Below, one piece after another: positions 2,251 to 56,983 of a stretch of DNA of 64,000 nt. The notes below the pieces were generated by a model, which did not search any database, was not told where the DNA came from, and was given only the letters and a program-made list of their open reading frames with translations. The stretch lies in the NCBI GenBank assembly GCA_036264095.1, contig DATARO010000080.1, positions 14,853 to 78,852 of the forward strand, written 5' to 3'. The stretch is from Solirubrobacteraceae bacterium. Its GTDB lineage: Bacteria > Actinomycetota > Thermoleophilia > Solirubrobacterales > Solirubrobacteraceae. The translations under genes and the position numbers were made by a program. Every line of letters starts with the position of its first letter. The stretch's first letter is position 1.

Positions 2251-3065
2251 GAGCGCAGCCTCCGCGAGACGGCCAGGCAGGAGACGCCGAGCAGCAGCGC
2301 GGCGAGCCAGGCGACCATGCCCTCGGGGATCGGCCCGAGGTTCCCGATCGACCAGCCGCCGCGGTTGTCGGGCTTGTTCGTCGTGAGCACGTACCTGACG
2401 ATCGAGGCCAGCTGGGATTCGGAGATCTGGCTCGCCGGGAAGCGCGGCATCAGGTAGGGGCCGATGCGCACGGCCTCGGCGATCTCGCTCGCGTCGATCC
2501 CCTGCAGTGGCGGGACGCGGGCGCCCGTGACGTAGCCGCCGCGCCCGAGGCTCTGATGGCATCCGGCGCAGTCTTCGGTGAACAGCTGGAACCCGCGCGA
2601 GACGTTGCCCCGGCGGACTTCCGGGTGGAGGATCCCCGGCCCTTTGCCGAGCGACGCCACGAACGCCGTCATGGAGGCGATCTCGGTCGGCGTGAACTGC
2701 ACGGGATGGTTGGCCGGCTCGTCGTGGATGCCGGCGAGCGGCATGAAGCCGGTGCGCAGATAGAAGTCCGCCGCCAGCGCGCCGACCCCTTGCAGCGGCG
2801 GGCCGGCTCCGGGCACGACGCCGGCGCCGATGCGCGGGCGGCTGATCCCTTCGCCGGCGATCCCGTGGCAGCTCGCGCAGTTCGCGCTGAACAGCTGCCG
2901 GCCGAGCTCGAGCGACGGTGTGGACGGCTCGGACGAGGGCCGCACGATGCCGTTCTGGGAGGCGGCGAGCGCCGTCGTCACGCCGCCCGCCAGGCCGACG
3001 AGCGTCAGCACCGCGGCCGCGCGGGCGAGCCAGCTGCAAGCGGTCTGGCGGCTCGGCGCGGTCAT
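2247..3065 (-). CDS. qcrC: Diheme cytochrome c subunit of bc1
   Basis: Two CxxCH motifs (CASCH, CAGCH); C-terminal GPIPEG plus TM anchor. Confidence 0.93.
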   Translation of the reverse strand: MTAPSRQTACSWLARAAAVLTLVGLAGGVTTALAASQNGIVRPSSEPSTPSLELGRQLFSANCASCHGIAGEGISRPRIGAGVVPGAGPPLQGVGALAADFYLRTGFMPLAGIHDEPANHPVQFTPTEIASMTAFVASLGKGPGILHPEVRRGNVSRGFQLFTEDCAGCHQSLGRGGYVTGARVPPLQGIDASEIAEAVRIGPYLMPRFPASQISESQLASIVRYVLTTNKPDNRGGWSIGNLGPIPEGMVAWLAALLLGVSCLAVSRRLRS

Positions 3066-3475
3066 GACTGCCGGCAGAGCGTGAGCAGCGGGTGACCGAT
3101 CGCGACCATCGCGCAGATCACCGCTGGAAACGGATTGACGGTCAGCGCCACGGCCGAGAGGAAGTGGATGCGCCCGGTGGCGATGTCATCGGGCTCCTGG
3201 GTGCCCGGATCGGCGCGCGTGGCTCTGAAGACTGCGAGTGCGAGCAGCTCGGCGGCGACCCCGACGATGAACCCAGCTCCTCCGAGCGCCGCCGCGATCG
3301 CGTGCACCGGGAACTGGAAGCGGGCGTCCGGGGACTCACAGCGCGCGAGGCTGAACTGCATCGCGAACAGGAACTGCAGCGCCCACGCGGCGGGGCCGGC
3401 GAGGACGGCGAGCCACACCAACCGGCCCAGTCGCGACAGGCTCCGGCTCGCACGTGTCTGCACGGCGGGGCTCAT
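3062..3475 (-). CDS. Hypothetical membrane protein (about 3 TM), 137 aa, inside the respiratory operon
   Basis: MSPAVQTRAS...LCRQS. ATGA overlaps with both neighbours; hydrophobic segments. Confidence 0.75.
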   Translation of the reverse strand: MSPAVQTRASRSLSRLGRLVWLAVLAGPAAWALQFLFAMQFSLARCESPDARFQFPVHAIAAALGGAGFIVGVAAELLALAVFRATRADPGTQEPDDIATGRIHFLSAVALTVNPFPAVICAMVAIGHPLLTLCRQS

Positions 3476-13349: not shown

Positions 13350-13383
13350 GCCGTCGTACCGGCGCGCGAAAGGGCGCGCCGGT

Positions 13384-14460
13384 ATGAGCGCGCGCGAGCG
13401 GGCCGCGCCCGCCGCCGCCTCGCTCGCCGGAGCGCTGGAGCGCATCGCCTCCCGGTCGGCCGACCTCGACCGGCGCCCTCGGTTTCCGGCCGAGAACTTC
13501 AGGGACCTCGCCGATGCCGGCGCCCTGGCACCGCCCGCCGGGGGGCTCGCGGGAGAAGTTCGCCTGGTGCGCGCCGTGGCCGCGGTCGACGGCTCGACGG
13601 CGCGCATCCTCGACGGGCATCTCAACGGCGTCGAGCGGCTGGCGTCCAGCGGTCCCGAGCAGCTCCGCTTCAACGAGCTCCGGCAGATACGGAAGGGAAC
13701 GCTGCTGCTCGGCGTATGGGGCGCCGACCCGGTGGCCGGCGAGGGACCTCCCGCCCGGATGGAGGATCGGGACGGCCGGCTCGTGCTGCGCGGCGTGAAG
13801 ACATTCTGCTCCGGCGCCGGCGGCGTGCAGCGGGCGCTCGTCGTCGCCGCTCACGGCGAGGAGCGCGGCCGGCTTGCGTACGTCGACACGGGCAGCGGGG
13901 TGCGCGTGGACCGCGCCTGGTACCGGGCATCGGGGCTGCGCTCGTCCGAGAGCCACCGCGTCGAGTTCCACGACACCCCCGTGCTCGCGCTGCTGGGCGA
14001 GCCGGGCGAGCTGGCGCGAGAGCCGTGGTTCTCGCGTGATGCGGTTCGCACATCCGCGACCTGGGCCGGCCTGTCCGACGGCCTCGTGGCGGAGACCGTC
14101 TCCAGGCTCGACCGCGCGCGGGTGGATGCCACGCAGGCGCAGGCCGTCGGGCGGATGCGCGTCGCGCTCGGCACGATCGACCGCTGGCTGGACCACACCG
14201 CCGCGGTGCTCGGGCGGCCCGGCGAGGGCGTTCCCGTGCCTGACCAGACAGCGCTTGCGCTCGAATGCCGCCTCGCCCTGCACGAGTGCGCACGTCTGAT
14301 CGCATCGCTCGCGGCTCGCGCCTGCGGCTCGCGCGCGCTCGTCGACGGTGGCAGGCTGGACCGGGCCCGGCGCGACCTGGACCTGTTCCTCCTTCAGCAC
14401 CGGCTCGACCCGAAGCTCGCAACGCTCGGCTGCGACTCGCTCCAGGCGGGAGCGCGGTGA
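13384..14460 (+). CDS. Acyl-CoA dehydrogenase-like flavoprotein
   Basis: KTFCSGA, GLRSSESHRVEF, RDLDLFLLQH. Confidence 0.75.
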   Translation: MSARERAAPAAASLAGALERIASRSADLDRRPRFPAENFRDLADAGALAPPAGGLAGEVRLVRAVAAVDGSTARILDGHLNGVERLASSGPEQLRFNELRQIRKGTLLLGVWGADPVAGEGPPARMEDRDGRLVLRGVKTFCSGAGGVQRALVVAAHGEERGRLAYVDTGSGVRVDRAWYRASGLRSSESHRVEFHDTPVLALLGEPGELAREPWFSRDAVRTSATWAGLSDGLVAETVSRLDRARVDATQAQAVGRMRVALGTIDRWLDHTAAVLGRPGEGVPVPDQTALALECRLALHECARLIASLAARACGSRALVDGGRLDRARRDLDLFLLQHRLDPKLATLGCDSLQAGAR

Positions 14461-15029: not shown

Positions 15030-16183
15030 AGCCGCGGCGCATCGTGATCGTCGGCGCCGGGCCCGCAGGCCTCGCCACCGCCCAGGCGTACCGTGAGCAC
15101 GGCGGCTCCGGCGCGGTGACGATGCTCGGCAAGGAGGGTCTCCTTCCGTATCAGCGGCCGCCCCTGACGAAGGAGTTCGTGCGCGGCGAGCTCGATGCCG
15201 ACGAGCTTCCGATCCGTCCTGCCGAGTGGTTCGATGAGCACGACATCGAGCTGTGCCTCGAGCTCGAGGTGACCTCGATCGATCCGGACGCCGGCGATGT
15301 CGGCCTGGACGGCCGCACTTTGCGCGCCGACACGATCGTGCTCGCGACCGGTGCCGAGCCCGCGCGCCCGGAGCTGCCGGGTTTCGACGATCCGCGCGTG
15401 CACACGATGCGCGAGCGCTCCGACAGCGAACGGATAGCCGCGGCGGTGCGGCCGGGGACGAGCGTCGTCGTGCTGGGGAGCGGGTTCATCGGCTGCGAGC
15501 TCGCCGCGTCGCTCGCGCTCAACGGGGCCGGCGTCACGCTCGTGAGCAACGAGGCCGCGCCCCAGCAGCGCCGCCTGGGGGCCGCGGCGGCGAACAACAT
15601 CGCGCGATGGCTGGAAGACCTCGGCGTCGGACTGAGGATGGGCGTCGAGGTGTGCGCGGTGCGCGGTGGCCGGATCGTGGAGCTGCGCGAGGGCGAGCCC
15701 GTCGAAGCGGAGAACGTCGTGCTCGGACTGGGCATGCGGCCACGGGTCGAGCTGGCCGAGCGCGCGGGCCTCGCGACCGCCGAGGGAGCGGTGCTCACCG
15801 ATGCGCAGATGCGCGCACACGAGCGGGTCCTCGCCGTCGGCGACGTCGCGTTCGCGCACAACCGGAGAGCGGGGCGGCGGCTGCGCGTCGAACACTGGGG
15901 CGACGCGCTCGGCCAGGGCGAGGTCGCGGGACGTGTCCTCGCCGGCGAGGACACGCACTGGCAGGACGTCCCCGGTTTCTGGTCCACGATCGGCCGCCGC
16001 ACGCTCAAGTACGCCGCGTGGGGCGACGGGCACGACCGCAGCCGCCTCGACACCTACCCCGGCGGCGCGTTCACCGTGTGGTACTCGCGTGCGGGCGAGC
16101 TCGTCGGCGCGCTCACGCATGAGCGCGACGAGGACTACGAGCGGGGACGGCGCTTGATCGCGACCGGGGAGGGTCCACCGTGA
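15026..16183 (+). CDS. FAD/NAD(P)-dependent oxidoreductase (ferredoxin reductase-like)
   Basis: IVGAGPAG, YQRPPLTK, LATG, LGSGFIGCE, AVGDVA, RVEHW. Confidence 0.9.
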   Translation: MKPRRIVIVGAGPAGLATAQAYREHGGSGAVTMLGKEGLLPYQRPPLTKEFVRGELDADELPIRPAEWFDEHDIELCLELEVTSIDPDAGDVGLDGRTLRADTIVLATGAEPARPELPGFDDPRVHTMRERSDSERIAAAVRPGTSVVVLGSGFIGCELAASLALNGAGVTLVSNEAAPQQRRLGAAAANNIARWLEDLGVGLRMGVEVCAVRGGRIVELREGEPVEAENVVLGLGMRPRVELAERAGLATAEGAVLTDAQMRAHERVLAVGDVAFAHNRRAGRRLRVEHWGDALGQGEVAGRVLAGEDTHWQDVPGFWSTIGRRTLKYAAWGDGHDRSRLDTYPGGAFTVWYSRAGELVGALTHERDEDYERGRRLIATGEGPP

Positions 16184-40303: not shown

Positions 40304-40329
40304 CGGCGGCTCGCGCGCGCGAGCCGCCG
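40304..40329. terminator. 26-bp perfect palindrome after the cupin gene
   Basis: CGGCGGCTCGCGC|GCGCGAGCCGCCG. Confidence 0.55.
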
Positions 40330-52075: not shown

Positions 52076-53316
52076 AGGCCGACCCCGAACGGCGCGCAGG
52101 CGCGCAGGGCGCTGTCAACGCCGTCCTCGTGGAAGCCCCAGCCCCAGTAGGCGCCGGCGAAGTGGGTGCGGTGCTCGAGGCCGCTGATCGAGGAATGCCG
52201 GGCCTGGGCGGCGACGCCGGCCGGGGTGTAGACGGGGTGCGCGTACTCGATCCGCCGGATGACGTGGCTCGGGTCGATCGCCTCGGTCCGGTTCAGCGTG
52301 ACACAGAAATGGCGGTCGGCGACGATCCGTTGGAGGTGGTTCATGTAGTAGGTGACGGTGGACAGGGGCTTCGGCTCGGCGAGCAGGTGGAAGTTCCAGG
52401 CGCTGCGGGCCCAGCGGCGGCGCGGGAGCAGGCTCGAGTCGGTGTGCAGGACCGCTTCGTTGCGCTGGTAGGGGATCGCGCCGAGGAGTTCGCGCTCGCG
52501 GGGGCTCGGGTCGCCGAGCATCGCCAGCGCCTGGTCGGAGTGGGTGGCGAGGACGACCTGGTCGAAGCGCTCGGGCTCGCAGCCGTCCGCGCGCAGCGCG
52601 ACGTGGTCGGAGTGCCGCTCGATGCGGCGCACCGGGCAGCGCAGGCGGATGCGCCCGGCGAACGGGGCCGTCAGGGCCTCGACGTAGCGCGCCGATCCGC
52701 CCGAGACGGTCGACCAGCGCGGGCGGCCGCGGAAGCCGAGCATGCCGTGGTTGGCGAAGAACTCGGCCAGGAAGCGGACCGGGAAGCTTCCCATCTGGCG
52801 CGGGTCTGCCGACCACACGGCGCTGACCTGGGGCACGATCATGCGCTCGACGAAGGCGCGTGAGAAGCGATGGCGCTCGAGGAACTCCGCGAGCGACTCG
52901 CCGCCGCGCTCGCCGCCGAGCACGCCGGCGAGCTTCGAGTTGAAGCGGAGGAGGTCGAGCACCATGCGCTGGAAGCGCGGGCTGACGGCGTTGCGCGGCT
53001 GGCAGTAGAGCCCGCGCGGGGTGCCGGCGTACTCGAAGTCCTCCTCCTCGCCCTTCACCGAGAAGCTCATGTGTGTCGGCTGCGTCGCCACGCCGAGGCG
53101 TGCCAGCAGGCGGGTGAAGTTGGGGTAGTTGCGGTCGTTCATGACGATGAAGCCCGTGTCGAGGTGATACGTGGCGTGCTCGGTGTCGACCCGAACCGTG
53201 TTCGTGTGGCCCCCGGGGTAGGAGGCCGCCTCGAACATCACGATCTCGTGCTCGCGGTGCAGCAGATGCGCCGCGACGAGTCCGGAAACGCCGGCTCCCA
53301 CGATCGCTATCCGCAT
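52072..53316 (-). CDS. FAD-dependent amine-oxidase-family protein (UfaD-like)
   Basis: IVGAGVSG, GGH, DTGFIV, AGAYWGWGFHEDG. Confidence 0.92.
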   Translation of the reverse strand: MRIAIVGAGVSGLVAAHLLHREHEIVMFEAASYPGGHTNTVRVDTEHATYHLDTGFIVMNDRNYPNFTRLLARLGVATQPTHMSFSVKGEEEDFEYAGTPRGLYCQPRNAVSPRFQRMVLDLLRFNSKLAGVLGGERGGESLAEFLERHRFSRAFVERMIVPQVSAVWSADPRQMGSFPVRFLAEFFANHGMLGFRGRPRWSTVSGGSARYVEALTAPFAGRIRLRCPVRRIERHSDHVALRADGCEPERFDQVVLATHSDQALAMLGDPSPRERELLGAIPYQRNEAVLHTDSSLLPRRRWARSAWNFHLLAEPKPLSTVTYYMNHLQRIVADRHFCVTLNRTEAIDPSHVIRRIEYAHPVYTPAGVAAQARHSSISGLEHRTHFAGAYWGWGFHEDGVDSALRACAPFGVGL

Positions 53317-53353
53317 CTGCCGTACCCCCTCGGTGCCCAGGTCATGTGACCGT

Positions 53354-53383
53354 CTCTACGTCGCGGTGCCGCCGCGCGGATCA
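53354..53383 (-). promoter_or_regulatory. Third ECF (SigK-like) promoter
   Basis: Minus strand TGATCC-N17-CGTAGAG upstream of ATG 53316. Confidence 0.7.
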
Positions 53384-53452
53384 CCGCTGCTCCGCGGCTC
53401 GCGCGAAACGCGGGGGAGGAACGGCGGGCGGGCGCGTCGAACAACAGCGCCG

Positions 53453-54370
53453 ATGAAGCGTGCGGCCACGGATATCACGGAGCGGCCTGCCGCCTCCGGG
53501 GCGGGCGGACAGAGATCCGCCGGGGGCGCGGGGCAGCACCAGAGCCTCTCCAAGTACATCCAGGCGCGTTTCGACGAATGCTCGCGGTCCCAGAAGGACG
53601 TCGCACAGTACATCGTCGACCATCTCGACGAGGCGGCGTTCCAGACCGCCGAGGAGCTGGCGCGCAGGGCGAACACGTCGAGCTCGACGGTCGTTCGATT
53701 CTCCCAGGCGCTCGGCTTCGAGGGCTTCCCCGAGCTGCAGGCGGCCGCGCGCGAGGAATATCGCCGCGTGAACGCGAAGGCCGCGAAGGAGGCGGCCGGG
53801 ACGACCTCCGCTCCGCTCTTCTCGCTCGACCAGAACGAGTTCGAGTCGGCCCTGACGGCCGACCACCTGAACGTCGAGGACACCGCGCGGAAGGTCTCGC
53901 GCAGCTCCGTCGAGGCGCTGATCGCGGCGATCGTCGATGCCGACAAGGTGCTGGTCGCCGGCACCGACCAGATGGCGTTCTTCGCGAGCTACATGCGGCA
54001 CCTGCTGATGCTGCTCGACCTGCGGGTGGACGTCGTGGCGAGCCCCTCCCAGGAGGCGCTCTCGCGGCTCGGCCGGATCGACGAACACACGCTCGTCATC
54101 GGGCTGTCCGCGGGGCGGCCTCACCCGCTCGTCGTGCGCGCGATGAAGCTCGCCCGCCACCGCCAGGCGCGCACCGCGGCGATCACCGACGCCACGCTTT
54201 CCGAGGTCGCGAAGCTCGCGCAGATCAAGCTCTACTACTCCTCGAACAGCCCCGCGTACGTGCGCTCGCACACGGCGTTGCTGAGCGTGATCCAGGCGCT
54301 GGCATACGGCGTCTACGCCCAGGACAGCGCCCAGTACGACGACCGCATCAAGGCGTTCCGGCTGAAGTGA
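53453..54370 (+). CDS. MurR/RpiR family transcriptional regulator
   Basis: HTH TAEELARRANTSSSTVVRFSQALGFEGF plus SIS domain. Confidence 0.92.
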   Translation: MKRAATDITERPAASGAGGQRSAGGAGQHQSLSKYIQARFDECSRSQKDVAQYIVDHLDEAAFQTAEELARRANTSSSTVVRFSQALGFEGFPELQAAAREEYRRVNAKAAKEAAGTTSAPLFSLDQNEFESALTADHLNVEDTARKVSRSSVEALIAAIVDADKVLVAGTDQMAFFASYMRHLLMLLDLRVDVVASPSQEALSRLGRIDEHTLVIGLSAGRPHPLVVRAMKLARHRQARTAAITDATLSEVAKLAQIKLYYSSNSPAYVRSHTALLSVIQALAYGVYAQDSAQYDDRIKAFRLK

Positions 54371-54381
54371 CAGATGGTAGT

Positions 54382-54479
54382 CGGGTGAGCCGCATGCGGC
54401 TCACCCGGGGATCGCGCATGCGCGATCCCCACGGGTCCGCACATGTGCGGACCCGCCGGTCGGCGCATGCGCCGACCGG
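54382..54479. repeat. Array of four abutting perfect palindromes (26/24/24/24 bp) centred on CATG
   Basis: 54382-54407, 54407-54430, 54432-54455, 54456-54479; each checked as self-complementary. Confidence 0.92.
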
Positions 54480-54529
54480 AGTCCGAAGGACTCTTCTCAG
54501 GGACGGGAGCGCCGATGTATGGTTTGCAC

Positions 54530-56011
54530 ATGGGGGAGGGGAGATCCTCGTGCGGGGGGCGCGTGCCGCTCGCGTCGCTGGTGGCTGCAGCCGTCGCCCT
54601 GCTGATCGCCGCCGCGGGGGCGGATACCGCCGGCGCCGCGGGCAGGGGCATCGTCGAAGGGACCGTCAGCGATGCGGTCACGCACGCGCCGATCGCGGGG
54701 ATCGAAGTGTGCGCGTACGGGCTCTCGGAAGAAGCGGAAGAACCGGTTTGCGCGGTCACCGGCGCCGGCGGCACCTATGCGCTCAGACTGGAAGCGGGCG
54801 AGCACGTGGTGGAATTCTTCTCGCCGTTCGGCAGCGGCCTCAACTACGTGACCGTCTATCAGGGCGGCGCCGAAACATGGCAAGCGGCGAAGGCGGGTCC
54901 GATCACGGTCACCGCGGGCGCCACCGTCACAGGCGTGAACGCCGCGATGCACGAAGGCGGGCGCATCGAAGGCCAGGTCACCGCAGCCGAAGATCCGGGT
55001 CACGGGATCGTAGGCATCGAAGTTTGCGCGCTGGCGCTGAGCGAAGAAGGCTTCGGCTGCGCCGTGACGGGCGCGGGCGGCGACTACGAGATCTCCGCGC
55101 TCCCGGGCGGCGAATACCGCGTCCGCTTCGCCCCGGAATACGAAAGCGGCCTCGACTGGGTGCCGCAGTTCTACGCGGACTCTCCGACGCGCGAACACGC
55201 CAAGCCAGTCTCCGTGAGCGTGGCGACGACGGCAAAGGGCATCGACGCGGCGCTCGAGCGCGGAGGCGAAATCGCGGGCTCGCTCACGGCGGCGCCTGCC
55301 GGCGAACCCCTGCCGGGCGCCGAAGCATGCGCGTTGACGAGCGAAACTAGCGCCGCCGCGTGTGCGTCCACCAACGGCAAGGGCGAATACGTGCTGCGCG
55401 GGCTAGCGCCCGGCTCCTACGCGGTGGGGTTCTCTGCGCCCGGCTACCAGTGGCAGTACTACCCGAGCGGCAGAACATGGAAGCTGGCGCAGCAGATCGC
55501 CGTCGGCCCGGGAACCGGCGTCGGGCTGTGGACCACCGAACTGCTGCCCTTGGGCTACGTCAAGCCGCCACCGGTCGTGCCGGTACCGGTCCCGCACACG
55601 GCGCCTGTGCCCCCGCCCGCACCCACGCCCGCGCCGGCCGCCGGGGTCGCTGGTGCAACGGCGCGCGCCCCGGTGATCGCGGTGTCCTCGCTGCGGCTGC
55701 GCGCGCGCCACGGGCACGTATCGGTGTCGCTCACCTGCACCGGCGCGCCGTGCAGCGGGACGCTGGACGTACAGACGCGCGTGTCCTATCGCGCGCGGCG
55801 CCACGGCCACTCGGTGACGCTGCACCGCACCGTCGTCCTCGCCCAGGGCGCCTTCGCGCTCGCGGCGGGCGCGCACGCGAACGTCTCGCTGCGCGAGACC
55901 GCCGCCGGCCGCACCCACCTGATGCACGCAGCCGGCGCTCCGATCGTCGCGCGGCTGCTCGGGAGCGTCAGCGGCGGCTCGGCGCTCGCGCTCAGCGTGC
56001 ACGTCTCCTGA
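54530..56011 (+). CDS. Secreted protein with three carboxypeptidase-regulatory-like beta-sandwich repeats
   Basis: Signal peptide; three GxIxGxV...EVC/EAC repeats; Pro-rich linker; -10 TATGGT 6 nt before ATG. Confidence 0.75.
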   Translation: MGEGRSSCGGRVPLASLVAAAVALLIAAAGADTAGAAGRGIVEGTVSDAVTHAPIAGIEVCAYGLSEEAEEPVCAVTGAGGTYALRLEAGEHVVEFFSPFGSGLNYVTVYQGGAETWQAAKAGPITVTAGATVTGVNAAMHEGGRIEGQVTAAEDPGHGIVGIEVCALALSEEGFGCAVTGAGGDYEISALPGGEYRVRFAPEYESGLDWVPQFYADSPTREHAKPVSVSVATTAKGIDAALERGGEIAGSLTAAPAGEPLPGAEACALTSETSAAACASTNGKGEYVLRGLAPGSYAVGFSAPGYQWQYYPSGRTWKLAQQIAVGPGTGVGLWTTELLPLGYVKPPPVVPVPVPHTAPVPPPAPTPAPAAGVAGATARAPVIAVSSLRLRARHGHVSVSLTCTGAPCSGTLDVQTRVSYRARRHGHSVTLHRTVVLAQGAFALAAGAHANVSLRETAAGRTHLMHAAGAPIVARLLGSVSGGSALALSVHVS

Positions 56012-56098
56012 GGCGCCCCGCCGCCGGGCGAGCGCGCGGCGAGCTCGTCCACGCGCTCCTCGCCGGCGACCGGCAGGACGGGATGTCAAACTAGGCCC

Positions 56099-56983
56099 AT
56101 GCACGACGAGGCGACCTTCCGCGTCAAGACCGGCTTGGCCGAGATGCTCAAGGGCGGCGTGATCATGGACGTCGTCACGCCCGAGCAGGCGAAGGTCGCC
56201 GAGGACGCGGGTGCCGCTGCGGTGATGGCGCTCGAACGCGTTCCAGCCGACATCCGCCGCGACGGCGGCGTCGCGCGGATGTCCGATCCCGAGATGATCG
56301 CGGGCATCCAGGCCGCCGTGAGCATCCCGGTCATGGCCAAGGCGCGCATCGGTCACTTCATGGAGGCGCGCGTGCTCGAGGCGCTCGAGGTCGACTACGT
56401 CGACGAGTCGGAGGTGCTCACGCCTGCCGACGAGCGCAACCACATCGACAAGTGGGCCTTCAAGGTCCCGTTCGTGTGCGGCGCGACCAATCTCGGCGAG
56501 GCCCTGCGGCGCATCGGCGAGGGCGCGGCGATGATCCGCTCCAAGGGCGAGGCCGGCACCGGCGACATCGTCGAGGCCGTGCGGCACATGCGCCAGATCA
56601 AGGGCGAGATCAGGCGGCTGGCGACCCTGTCGGAGGACGAGCTCGCGAGCGCCGCCAAGGAGCTCGCGGCCCCGCTCTCGGTCGTGCGCGAGGTCGCGGG
56701 CGAGGGGCGGCTCCCGGTCGTGCTGTTCTGCGCTGGCGGGATCGCCACGCCCGCCGACGCCGCGCTGATGATGGCGCTCGGCGCCGAAGGTGTGTTCGTC
56801 GGCTCGGGGATCTTCAAGTCCGACGACCCGCCGACCCGCGCCCGCGCGATCGTCGAGGCCACCACGCACTGGCAGGACGCCGCGCGCGTCGCCGACGCCT
56901 CCCGGGGTCTCGGCGCCGCGATGGCCAGCCTCGAGAGCGCGAAGCTCGAGGGCGACGAGCTGCTGGCACAAAGGGGCTGGTAG
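56099..56983 (+). CDS. pdxS: PLP synthase lyase subunit
   Basis: [40 protein letters not shown]. Confidence 0.97.

Follow-up and report, generated by a model that had tools for sequence, protein, structure and literature searches.

Downstream of a regulator gene of a Solirubrobacteraceae bacterium stands a row of four perfect palindromes, all centred on CATG and all different. What kind of element is this, how far does it extend beyond this one locus, and what could it do at the end of a gene? We addressed these questions starting from the 64,000-nucleotide stretch of DNA that carries the locus (here called the window, with positions counted from its first letter), and then followed the element through related genomes.

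Results

Four different palindromes behind rpiR

The array occupies most of the spacer between two + strand genes. It starts 11 nt downstream of the TGA stop codon (54368–54370, + strand) of a gene encoding a MurR/RpiR-family regulator with HTH_6 and SIS domains. On the other side, a GGGAG Shine-Dalgarno-like motif and ATG 54515 (together 54505–54517, + strand) provide a possible start for the downstream gene, which encodes a secreted protein with CarboxypepD_reg repeats; the start lies at 54515 or at 54563, the latter being the position called both by JGI and by our own gene caller. This gene is followed by pdxS at 56099, and the rpiR–pdxS interval was variable in all relatives examined. The names that sources give to RpiR homologues put the host in the Solirubrobacterales (Thermoleophilia, Actinomycetota).

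The four palindromes span 54382–54479, with arms of 13, 12, 12 and 12 nt, and have no strand of their own. Their CATG centres start at 54393, 54417, 54442 and 54466, which gives spacings of 24, 25 and 24 bp. Unit P1 (54382–54407; CGGGTGAGCCGCATGCGGCTCACCCG) is a perfect 26-bp palindrome with 13-nt arms that folds into a 10-bp stem with a CAUG loop. It has G54407 in common with P2 (54407–54430; GGGGATCGCGCATGCGCGATCCCC), a perfect 24-bp palindrome with 12-nt arms. P3 (54432–54455; CGGGTCCGCACATGTGCGGACCCG) and P4 (54456–54479; CCGGTCGGCGCATGCGCCGACCGG) are of the same length and perfection, again with 12-nt arms; P3 has the apex ACATGT, and P4 corresponds to the consensus terminal unit of the family described below, the unit of its polar end and the one with its commonest arm. 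A small hairpin, GAGTCC-GAA-GGACTC, with a C-GAA-G triloop (54479–54493, + strand), closes the array and is followed by TCTTCTC. On the left stands a single GTAG (54377–54380, + strand), with no tag in the individual units. In all these respects, from the palindromes and their spacing to the positions of GTAG and of the GAA hairpin, the sequence is exactly as an earlier note on this locus had described it.

A chance origin of the array is excluded by three lines of evidence. First, at 163 of the 167 CATG sites of this 72%-GC window the perfect arms do not exceed 6 nt, the exceptions being the four of the array. Second, matches to two consecutive centres occurred three times in the window, whereas 0.23 were expected from shuffles. 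Third, the segment 54365–54515 folded as RNA at −98.2 kcal/mol (z = −7.2; none of 200 shuffles equalled it), and with DNA parameters at −58.3 kcal/mol (z about −7.2); the predicted fold consists of four 10-bp hairpins with CAUG loops and the GAA hairpin. An assembly artefact is ruled out as well: the JGI metagenome contig L001 matches 11 kb around and including the array at 99.99% identity, the array shows zero differences in independent Logan contigs of the raw soil run X1, L155, a related metagenome contig, has the orthologous array of four units, and more than 100 arrays occur in long- and short-read MAGs. Neither of the two trivial explanations that the earlier note had named therefore held. 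A consensus terminator scan of 53000–56500 found no U-tract terminator, and no promoter or independent transcription unit was evident for the array.

A family of arrays in Solirubrobacterales

We searched a single genome of each species for runs of three CRCATGYG centres with the appropriate spacing, G and C being required at positions ±10, and at least 119 loci matched, nearly all of them in Solirubrobacterales. Among the matches listed, about 108 loci hold arrays of the window's kind, and their hosts are all Solirubrobacterales, Solirubrobacteraceae or unclassified actinomycete MAGs, from long- as well as short-read data; the matches from other phyla, about a dozen among those listed, are ordinary repeats or chance matches. 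The expectation of a dispersed REP/BIME-like class of stacked hairpins was thus borne out. In viral contigs the strict pattern found no palindrome arrays and a loose three-centre pattern matched only direct repeats or iterons, and a phage or plasmid origin was discarded. A full-text literature search found no description of a CATG-apex hairpin family. The arrays are a new, lineage-specific and previously undescribed family of dispersed extragenic multi-hairpin modules.

The matches listed comprise 109 arrays with 459 units, with two to seven units per array and a mode of four to five. The units are 22–24 bp long and abutting, and 330 of the 459 have perfect arms of exactly 12 nt; in these arrays the centres are most often 24 bp apart (n = 214), less often 25 (n = 65), 23 (n = 48) or 26 bp (n = 17). 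The only constant part of the units is the apex CRCATGYG, a constancy that is partly forced by the search, since the pattern fixes the apex and misses variants with other apices. The arms are GC-rich and otherwise free: the 358 perfect units among the matches listed have 250 distinct 12-nt arms. Units begin with SSGG, end with CCSS and carry no GTAG tag. They abut with 0–2 nt of A/T between them; the linkers, where there are any, measure 1–3 nt, are 74% A/T and are strand-symmetric. In single-stranded form a unit folds into a 10–11-bp, GC-rich Watson-Crick hairpin with the apex C-R-CAUG-Y-G. We took as a family member any set of at least three abutting 22–24-bp perfect palindromes with the apex CRCATGYG, a period of 23–26 bp, stems that are all different and an intergenic 3'-end position; the window array shows all of these features and belongs to the family.

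One MAG contains at least seven arrays, and about 0.85 Mb of flanking sequence contained no second independent array. These observations suggest a density of roughly 7–12 arrays per 3–4-Mb genome, the per-genome counts being lower bounds.

The modules are polar. Roughly half of the arrays have at one end a terminal unit that hardly varies, CCGGNCGGCRCATGYGCCGNCCGG, with AAC(A/T)(G/A)C after it, and the consensus of this terminal unit (unit 1) is CCGG.CGGCGCA. At the opposite end the sequence is rich in C, or there is an additional small hairpin, in many cases with a C-GAA-G loop; GAA-loop hairpins like that of the window flank the arrays in L052, L088, L134 and L125 and are not universal. In L155, the metagenome contig that carries the orthologue of the window array, the counterpart of P4 is followed by AACTAA, which places the polar end of the window array on its right.

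No array contains two identical units. Pairs of units with no more than one differing position make up 0.6–0.9% of pairs within arrays versus 3.5% between arrays; growth through recent tandem duplication was therefore rejected, units of the same array being less alike than units of different arrays. As all units in an array differ, each hairpin can pair only with itself. The arrays are not CRISPRs, as had already been supposed: there are no spacers, the units differ and no cas family occurs among the neighbouring genes. CRISPR-like polar growth can also be set aside, as orthologous sets gave no consistent pattern.

The stems covary, almost always in Watson-Crick pairs

That the differences between arms are compensatory had been deduced from the window array, and the family confirms it. 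In an unfiltered sample, to which each of 49 loci contributed its three units matched by the pattern, with false positives kept and three window units added, standard pairs filled 93.9% of cells, versus 63% in column shuffles (0 of 500 reached the observed value) and 33–54% when the partners were slid. The covariation score of this sample was 0.72 versus 0.19, and G:U wobble was almost absent from it (7 of 1470 cells). Beside the apex, at the third position of the stem, the R:Y pair covaried in 458 of 459 units, and here the pattern had permitted all four combinations. Between orthologous arrays we counted 114 compensated pair changes versus 14 one-sided changes and 1 uncompensated double change, a ratio that is somewhat inflated by the pre-selection of units as near-palindromes and drawn from comparisons that are not phylogenetically independent, its direction not being in doubt. 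The compensated changes were of transition type in 55 cases and of transversion type in 59. No strand-specific signal in linkers or wobble pairs marked one strand as the transcribed one.

Scarce wobble together with many transversion doubles is unusual for stems selected as RNA. A structure or mechanism at the level of DNA agrees with the combination just as well. We infer that it also fits copying of one arm from the other, that is, template switching at quasipalindromes. Template switching can create and maintain hairpins (PMC8794818, PMC7202029).

If DNA is the level at which the structure matters, the units may form cruciforms or lagging-strand hairpins, perhaps binding a structure- or CRCATGYG-specific dimer or gyrase in the manner of BIME-2, and manage supercoiling or the nucleoid at the ends of transcription units. 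The two-fold symmetry, which is complete down to the apex, points this way, as do the lack of wobble pairs, transversion doubles as common as transition doubles, the strand-symmetric A/T-rich linkers, a module orientation that is independent of gene direction and a DNA-parameter fold as far from its shuffles as the RNA fold; convergent genes, between which the arrays are enriched (see below), are moreover where positive supercoils accumulate. However, the 8-mer core is not enriched as solitary sites elsewhere in the window (10 observed versus 9.6 expected), and a protein reading double-stranded DNA would not need variable arms that are self-complementary. Palindromes of 24 bp are also short for cruciform extrusion in vivo. 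We consider a DNA-level role of this kind quite unlikely.

Arrays lie at the 3' ends of unrelated genes

Gene positions came from our own codon-usage caller, trained on the array loci, which reproduces most of the JGI calls in the window. The arrays are intergenic in 100 of 103 cases. Against a background of the remaining intergenic regions of these loci, they are depleted in divergent regions (4 of 89 versus 109 of 426; p = 2e-6) and enriched in convergent ones (30 of 89 versus 49 of 426; p = 1e-6). Measured from the stop codon that faces it, an array lies at a median distance of 21 nt, and for 75 of 97 arrays the distance is 50 nt or less. Neither the direction of the flanking genes nor GC skew, gene-strand bias or replication-strand bias was significantly tied to the polarity of the module.

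The 150 nearest genes belong to 141 Pfam families, among them HisA/F, FtsZ, GcvT, SufB, SOD, IspG and ribosomal protein S7. Transposases were absent from those neighbour families that have at least two members. RpiR is not enriched among the 150 neighbours, and this bears on the suggestion that the array might bind the adjacent regulator. At the 3' end of rpiR, arrays occur in the window, in L155 and in L132 and are absent from L002–L006 and L151–L153; the relatives without an array have a single long hairpin at this place, or nothing. An operator array for the RpiR/MurR protein, for which the adjacency of rpiR in the window is the sole argument, is thus ruled out by the diversity of the neighbouring genes and by the rpiR orthologues, most of which have no array. 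The chance that such an operator explains the array, or that an assembly error does against three independent assemblies of the window array, is negligible.

No consistent U-tract follows the arrays: the flank profiles read AACAGC on one side and C-rich on the other, with no T-runs. A seven-unit array, in L035, lies inside an A5...T5 terminator stem. Apart from this locus, the complementarity of the two flanks equals that of controls, and a long-range stem closing the arrays was rejected.

Persistence at orthologous sites and occasional movement

Array sites are orthologous across species whose flanks are 75–97% identical. The orthologue of the window array came from a metagenome pattern search, which found L154 and L155. 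In L155 the array has four units in the same order behind an rpiR gene that is 87.5% identical, and the array itself is 92% identical to that of the window versus 84–88% for the flanks. The counterpart of P1 reads AGGTGAGCCG...CGGCTCACCT, the core of P2 is identical, and the counterpart of P3 shows two adjacent pair changes, both fully compensated. The gene that follows the array differs between L155 and the window. The L155 flank has no GTAG and family units start with SSGG, and the GTAG beside the window array is therefore probably a coincidence of sequence. L132 has a different array, of six units, behind its rpiR. Elsewhere in the family, units were lost, gained and occasionally replaced whole, as unit 2 was in L037 and L067.

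Four genomes share one five-unit module, complete with its small hairpin at the end and AACAGCAC; the three loci concerned (L039/L092, L050 and L124) are non-homologous. Between L039 and L092 the module is inverted within the same flanking genes, and is 96% identical versus 80% for the flanks; L059/L134 is a second flipped pair. Neither target-site duplications nor direct repeats are visible at the borders of the L039/L092/L124 module, and no terminal inverted repeats are visible, flank-to-flank complementarity being that of controls. Other sharing of units between arrays is about the chance level for the arm composition (about 0.5% per unit pair), and we did not retain it as evidence of mobility; only the module of L039, L050, L092 and L124 stands out. 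From time to time, then, a whole module is copied to another locus or inverted where it stands, a conclusion that rests mainly on one module family.

Such movement raises the possibility of a selfish, non-autonomous mobile element of the REP/REPIN or MITE kind, which a distant enzyme (HUH or another) moves as folded single strands of DNA and which has no host function; gene 3' ends would be where its insertions are tolerated, and template switching alone would keep its palindromes. One module at non-homologous loci, modules flipped at the same site and the variable presence of arrays behind rpiR would all follow, and the lack of a visible target-site duplication is expected of HUH-type elements. 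The single conserved end, with its constant terminal unit and AAC(A/T)(G/A)C, the purely Watson-Crick stems and the C-GAA-G mini-hairpin, which is typical of stable DNA hairpins, agree with this as well. The mobilising enzyme was sought with an HMM of our own, built from four solved Y1 transposases and run on six-frame ORFs from 1.12 Mb around about 110 arrays. It gave no Y1- or RAYT-like ORF at E <= 10, with a sensitivity for RAYTs that is uncertain, and no transposase recurs among the neighbouring genes. The proposed link of the array to GTAG and RAYT genes accordingly found no support, in the units, in the L155 flank or in the neighbourhood. The low copy number and the heterogeneity of stems within a genome are unlike REP/REPIN populations, arrays persist at orthologous sites through at least 20% flank divergence in genomes of 3–4 Mb, a single module family is clearly multi-locus, and polarity is unbiased with respect to the replication strand. 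A selfish origin is in our opinion rather unlikely.

Discussion

Several known systems resemble the arrays in part. Like REPs and BIMEs, they are short, GC-rich, extragenic palindromes in clusters, placed after genes and between convergent or co-directional genes, with a presence and number that vary between relatives and with vertical persistence. The roles proposed for REP/BIME sequences include termination, mRNA stabilisation and supercoiling (PMC3733652). However, REPs carry a GTAG/CGTC tag, have imperfect palindromes and share one genome-wide consensus stem in hundreds of copies per genome, whereas the units described here have neither tag, are perfect and each have a different stem, with some 7–12 arrays per genome. 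With the GTAG-REPs the family shares the extragenic position, mostly after genes; the per-unit tag, the shared stem, the copy number and the nearby RAYT gene are all wanting. BIMEs consist of alternating REPs and defined linker motifs, whereas units that have no orientation abut here at 24 bp, so that neither alternating orientation nor defined linkers can be recognised. The terminal inverted repeats and target-site duplications of MITEs are likewise lacking.

Among terminators, the family has the stable hairpin shortly after the stop codon of the Rho-independent class and lacks its U-tract. The TRIT of Mycobacterium is a palindromic, bidirectional hairpin motif of conserved sequence at gene termini (PMC3152330), for which the authors suggested an extra binding factor (PMC3152330). 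Restriction to an actinobacterial lineage, palindromic and therefore bidirectional structure and gene-end position are common to TRIT and our arrays. Yet each TRIT consists of one hairpin whose stem sequence is conserved, and its 147 copies lie at around −8 relative to the stop codon, whereas the arrays stack two to seven hairpins in which the stems are free and the apex is conserved, at a median of 21 nt past the stop. Hairpin-cluster intrinsic terminators consist of several hairpins less than 15 nt apart and up to 80 nt from the stop codon, and do not require poly-U (PMC8355165). Such clusters are generic, without a shared apex, perfect palindromy, a fixed 24-nt period or kinship between loci, and their size falls exponentially beyond two hairpins, whereas our family has its mode at four to five.

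Known RNA families offered no better fit. Rfam 15 contained no family that reached its gathering threshold on the window array or on the arrays of 18 other loci, and membership in a known RNA family was set aside. The best match was RF02829 (Scr4115), a Streptomyces sRNA that is likewise multi-hairpin, GC-rich, actinobacterial and of similar length; the match scores 30.4 bits where the gathering threshold is 58, and it reflects a generic hairpin layout only. The MAEB and CsrB RNAs are similar in that they repeat a hairpin, at times in tandem, whose loop is conserved and whose stem covaries (PMC1950547). They are found 5' of specific gene sets or as a dedicated sRNA, however, and have loops that are not self-complementary and no palindromy on both strands. 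By analogy, the arrays might be multivalent RNA scaffolds or sponges, in which hairpins with a CAUG apex would titrate or recruit an RNA-binding protein. An invariant apex on free stems is the classic signature of a hairpin read through its loop, and two to seven copies per module fit the MAEB/CsrB analogy (PMC1950547). But no promoter or transcription unit of their own is evident, the modules lie in either orientation relative to the flanking genes, and several to about a dozen copies are dispersed after unrelated housekeeping genes. This makes an RNA scaffold highly improbable.

We propose instead, with about even confidence and from the sequence and placement of the arrays, that this dispersed extragenic module of Solirubrobacterales acts as an orientation-independent terminator or as a protector of RNA 3' ends. 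Because every unit reads identically on both strands, RNA polymerase coming from either side would transcribe the same stack of very stable hairpins. Such a stack may pause or terminate transcription without a U-tract, and it may block 3'-to-5' exonucleases, thereby insulating neighbouring transcription units. The invariant apex would suggest recognition by a lineage-specific factor, and selection, along with template switching within a strand (quasipalindrome correction), probably preserves the perfect symmetry. We regard a role at transcript ends as the most likely one for several reasons: the arrays lie about 21 nt past stop codons and are enriched between convergent genes, they stand where relatives have ordinary terminator hairpins, they persist for long at orthologous sites in small genomes, their orthogonal stems guarantee local folding, and there are precedents in the hairpin-cluster and palindromic terminators of bacteria that do without U-tracts (PMC8355165, PMC3152330). 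With some 7–12 arrays per genome, they cannot be the general terminator of their hosts.

A selfish element whose insertion is tolerated would likewise lie at 3' ends. Moreover, simple termination leaves unexplained the apex, the polar end, the copying and flipping of modules and the exclusively Watson-Crick stems. These features leave room for a role at the level of DNA, for an origin as a selfish mobile element or for a protein partner dedicated to the arrays. Speculatively, the arrays might form the cis-acting part of a dedicated system specific to Solirubrobacterales, in which a protein would read the apex in RNA or single-stranded DNA, the orthogonal hairpins would offer it a multivalent platform, and whole units would be copied, flipped and rewritten by this protein or by an enzyme that partners it. 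Such a system would account for the apex, the polar terminal unit with its AAC, the replacement of whole units and the inversions. Unlikely as we consider it, it would, if true, be a new kind of system of structured nucleic acid and protein, beyond a REP variant or a passive terminator.

If our reading of the arrays as transcript-end elements holds, an order of abundant and largely uncultured soil actinobacteria marks gene ends with a distinctive and easily recognised element. Operon and terminator annotation would then improve in high-GC MAGs, where classical terminator finders fail. The family would also be a natural library of several hundred orthogonal, stable hairpins around one apex, which could supply synthetic bidirectional insulators for actinobacteria, and an unusually clean data set on how stems are maintained, by compensatory selection or by template-switch conversion, given the scarcity of wobble intermediates. 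Finally, the apex and the polar end would point to a binding or mobilising factor worth finding in these bacteria.

Orthologue of the window array and a relative lacking the array at that site

The array carried by L155 (metagenome contig Ga0102924_1061960) is a true orthologue of the four-unit array found in the window at 54382-54479. It lies about 100 nt past rpiR, the gene for a MurR/RpiR-family regulator, and consists of four units in the same order as those of the window (P1-P4). At unit 3, the two loci differ by two neighbouring pair changes, both of which are compensated. The L155 array is followed on its far side by AACTAA, and the tetranucleotide GTAG, present in the window at 54377-54380, is absent from its left flank.

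A Logan contig from the soil run X1 tracks rpiR to its stop codon (54368-54370) and diverges from the window sequence at 54371. This divergence at the end of rpiR indicates that a relative devoid of the array at that position co-occurs in the same soil run. Gene content between rpiR and pdxS varies among the relatives compared (window 53453-56983; L002-L006, L151-L153 and L155): this interval contains a 498-aa secreted protein with CarboxypepD_reg repeats in the window, a 153-aa ORF in L004, a methyltransferase together with a small ORF in L006, an acetyltransferase in L151 and L155, and no gene in L002 and L152.

The P1-P2 pair was also found in L154 (metagenome contig Ga0075030_100030442, 4280-4325; 47 nt, 96% identity), as part of a four-unit array whose genomic context is unrelated to that of the window. 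The order of the pair is reversed there with respect to the GCTGTT end, and the likeness of the two loci may be due to common descent or to chance.

Other palindromes and unusual array settings

Three further palindromic elements of the window were all devoid of the CATG apex: a 26-bp perfect palindrome, CGGCGGCTCGCGCGCGCGAGCCGCCG, located 7 nt past a stop codon (40304-40329), a hairpin with an 11-bp stem and a GAAAGG loop between two genes (13357-13384), and a 24-bp perfect palindrome within a gene (15932-15955). In the viral loci L020, L021, L026 and L028, which are phage contigs, short GCGCATGCGC palindromes (arms of at most 5 nt) are repeated directly in the manner of iterons; they are unrelated to the CATG-apex modules.

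In L035 (about 3030-3270), an 18-bp stem bordered by A5 and T5 encloses an array of seven units together with a decayed one whose centre is CGTG; the array looks as if it had been inserted into a classical bidirectional terminator, within the loop of the latter. In L057 (3159-3281 and 3336-3417), a tRNA gene lies 55 nt downstream of an array.

Module inversion and unit replacement

Entire modules are flipped between the same neighbour genes across species, as seen in L039 (4056-4202) versus L092 (2890-3036), where identity reaches 96% in the module against 80% in the flanks, and in L059 versus L134. A single unit has also been exchanged as a whole: between L037 and L067, the adjacent units are identical and the flanks 93% identical, whereas unit 2 differs at five of its nine variable pairs, every change being compensated.
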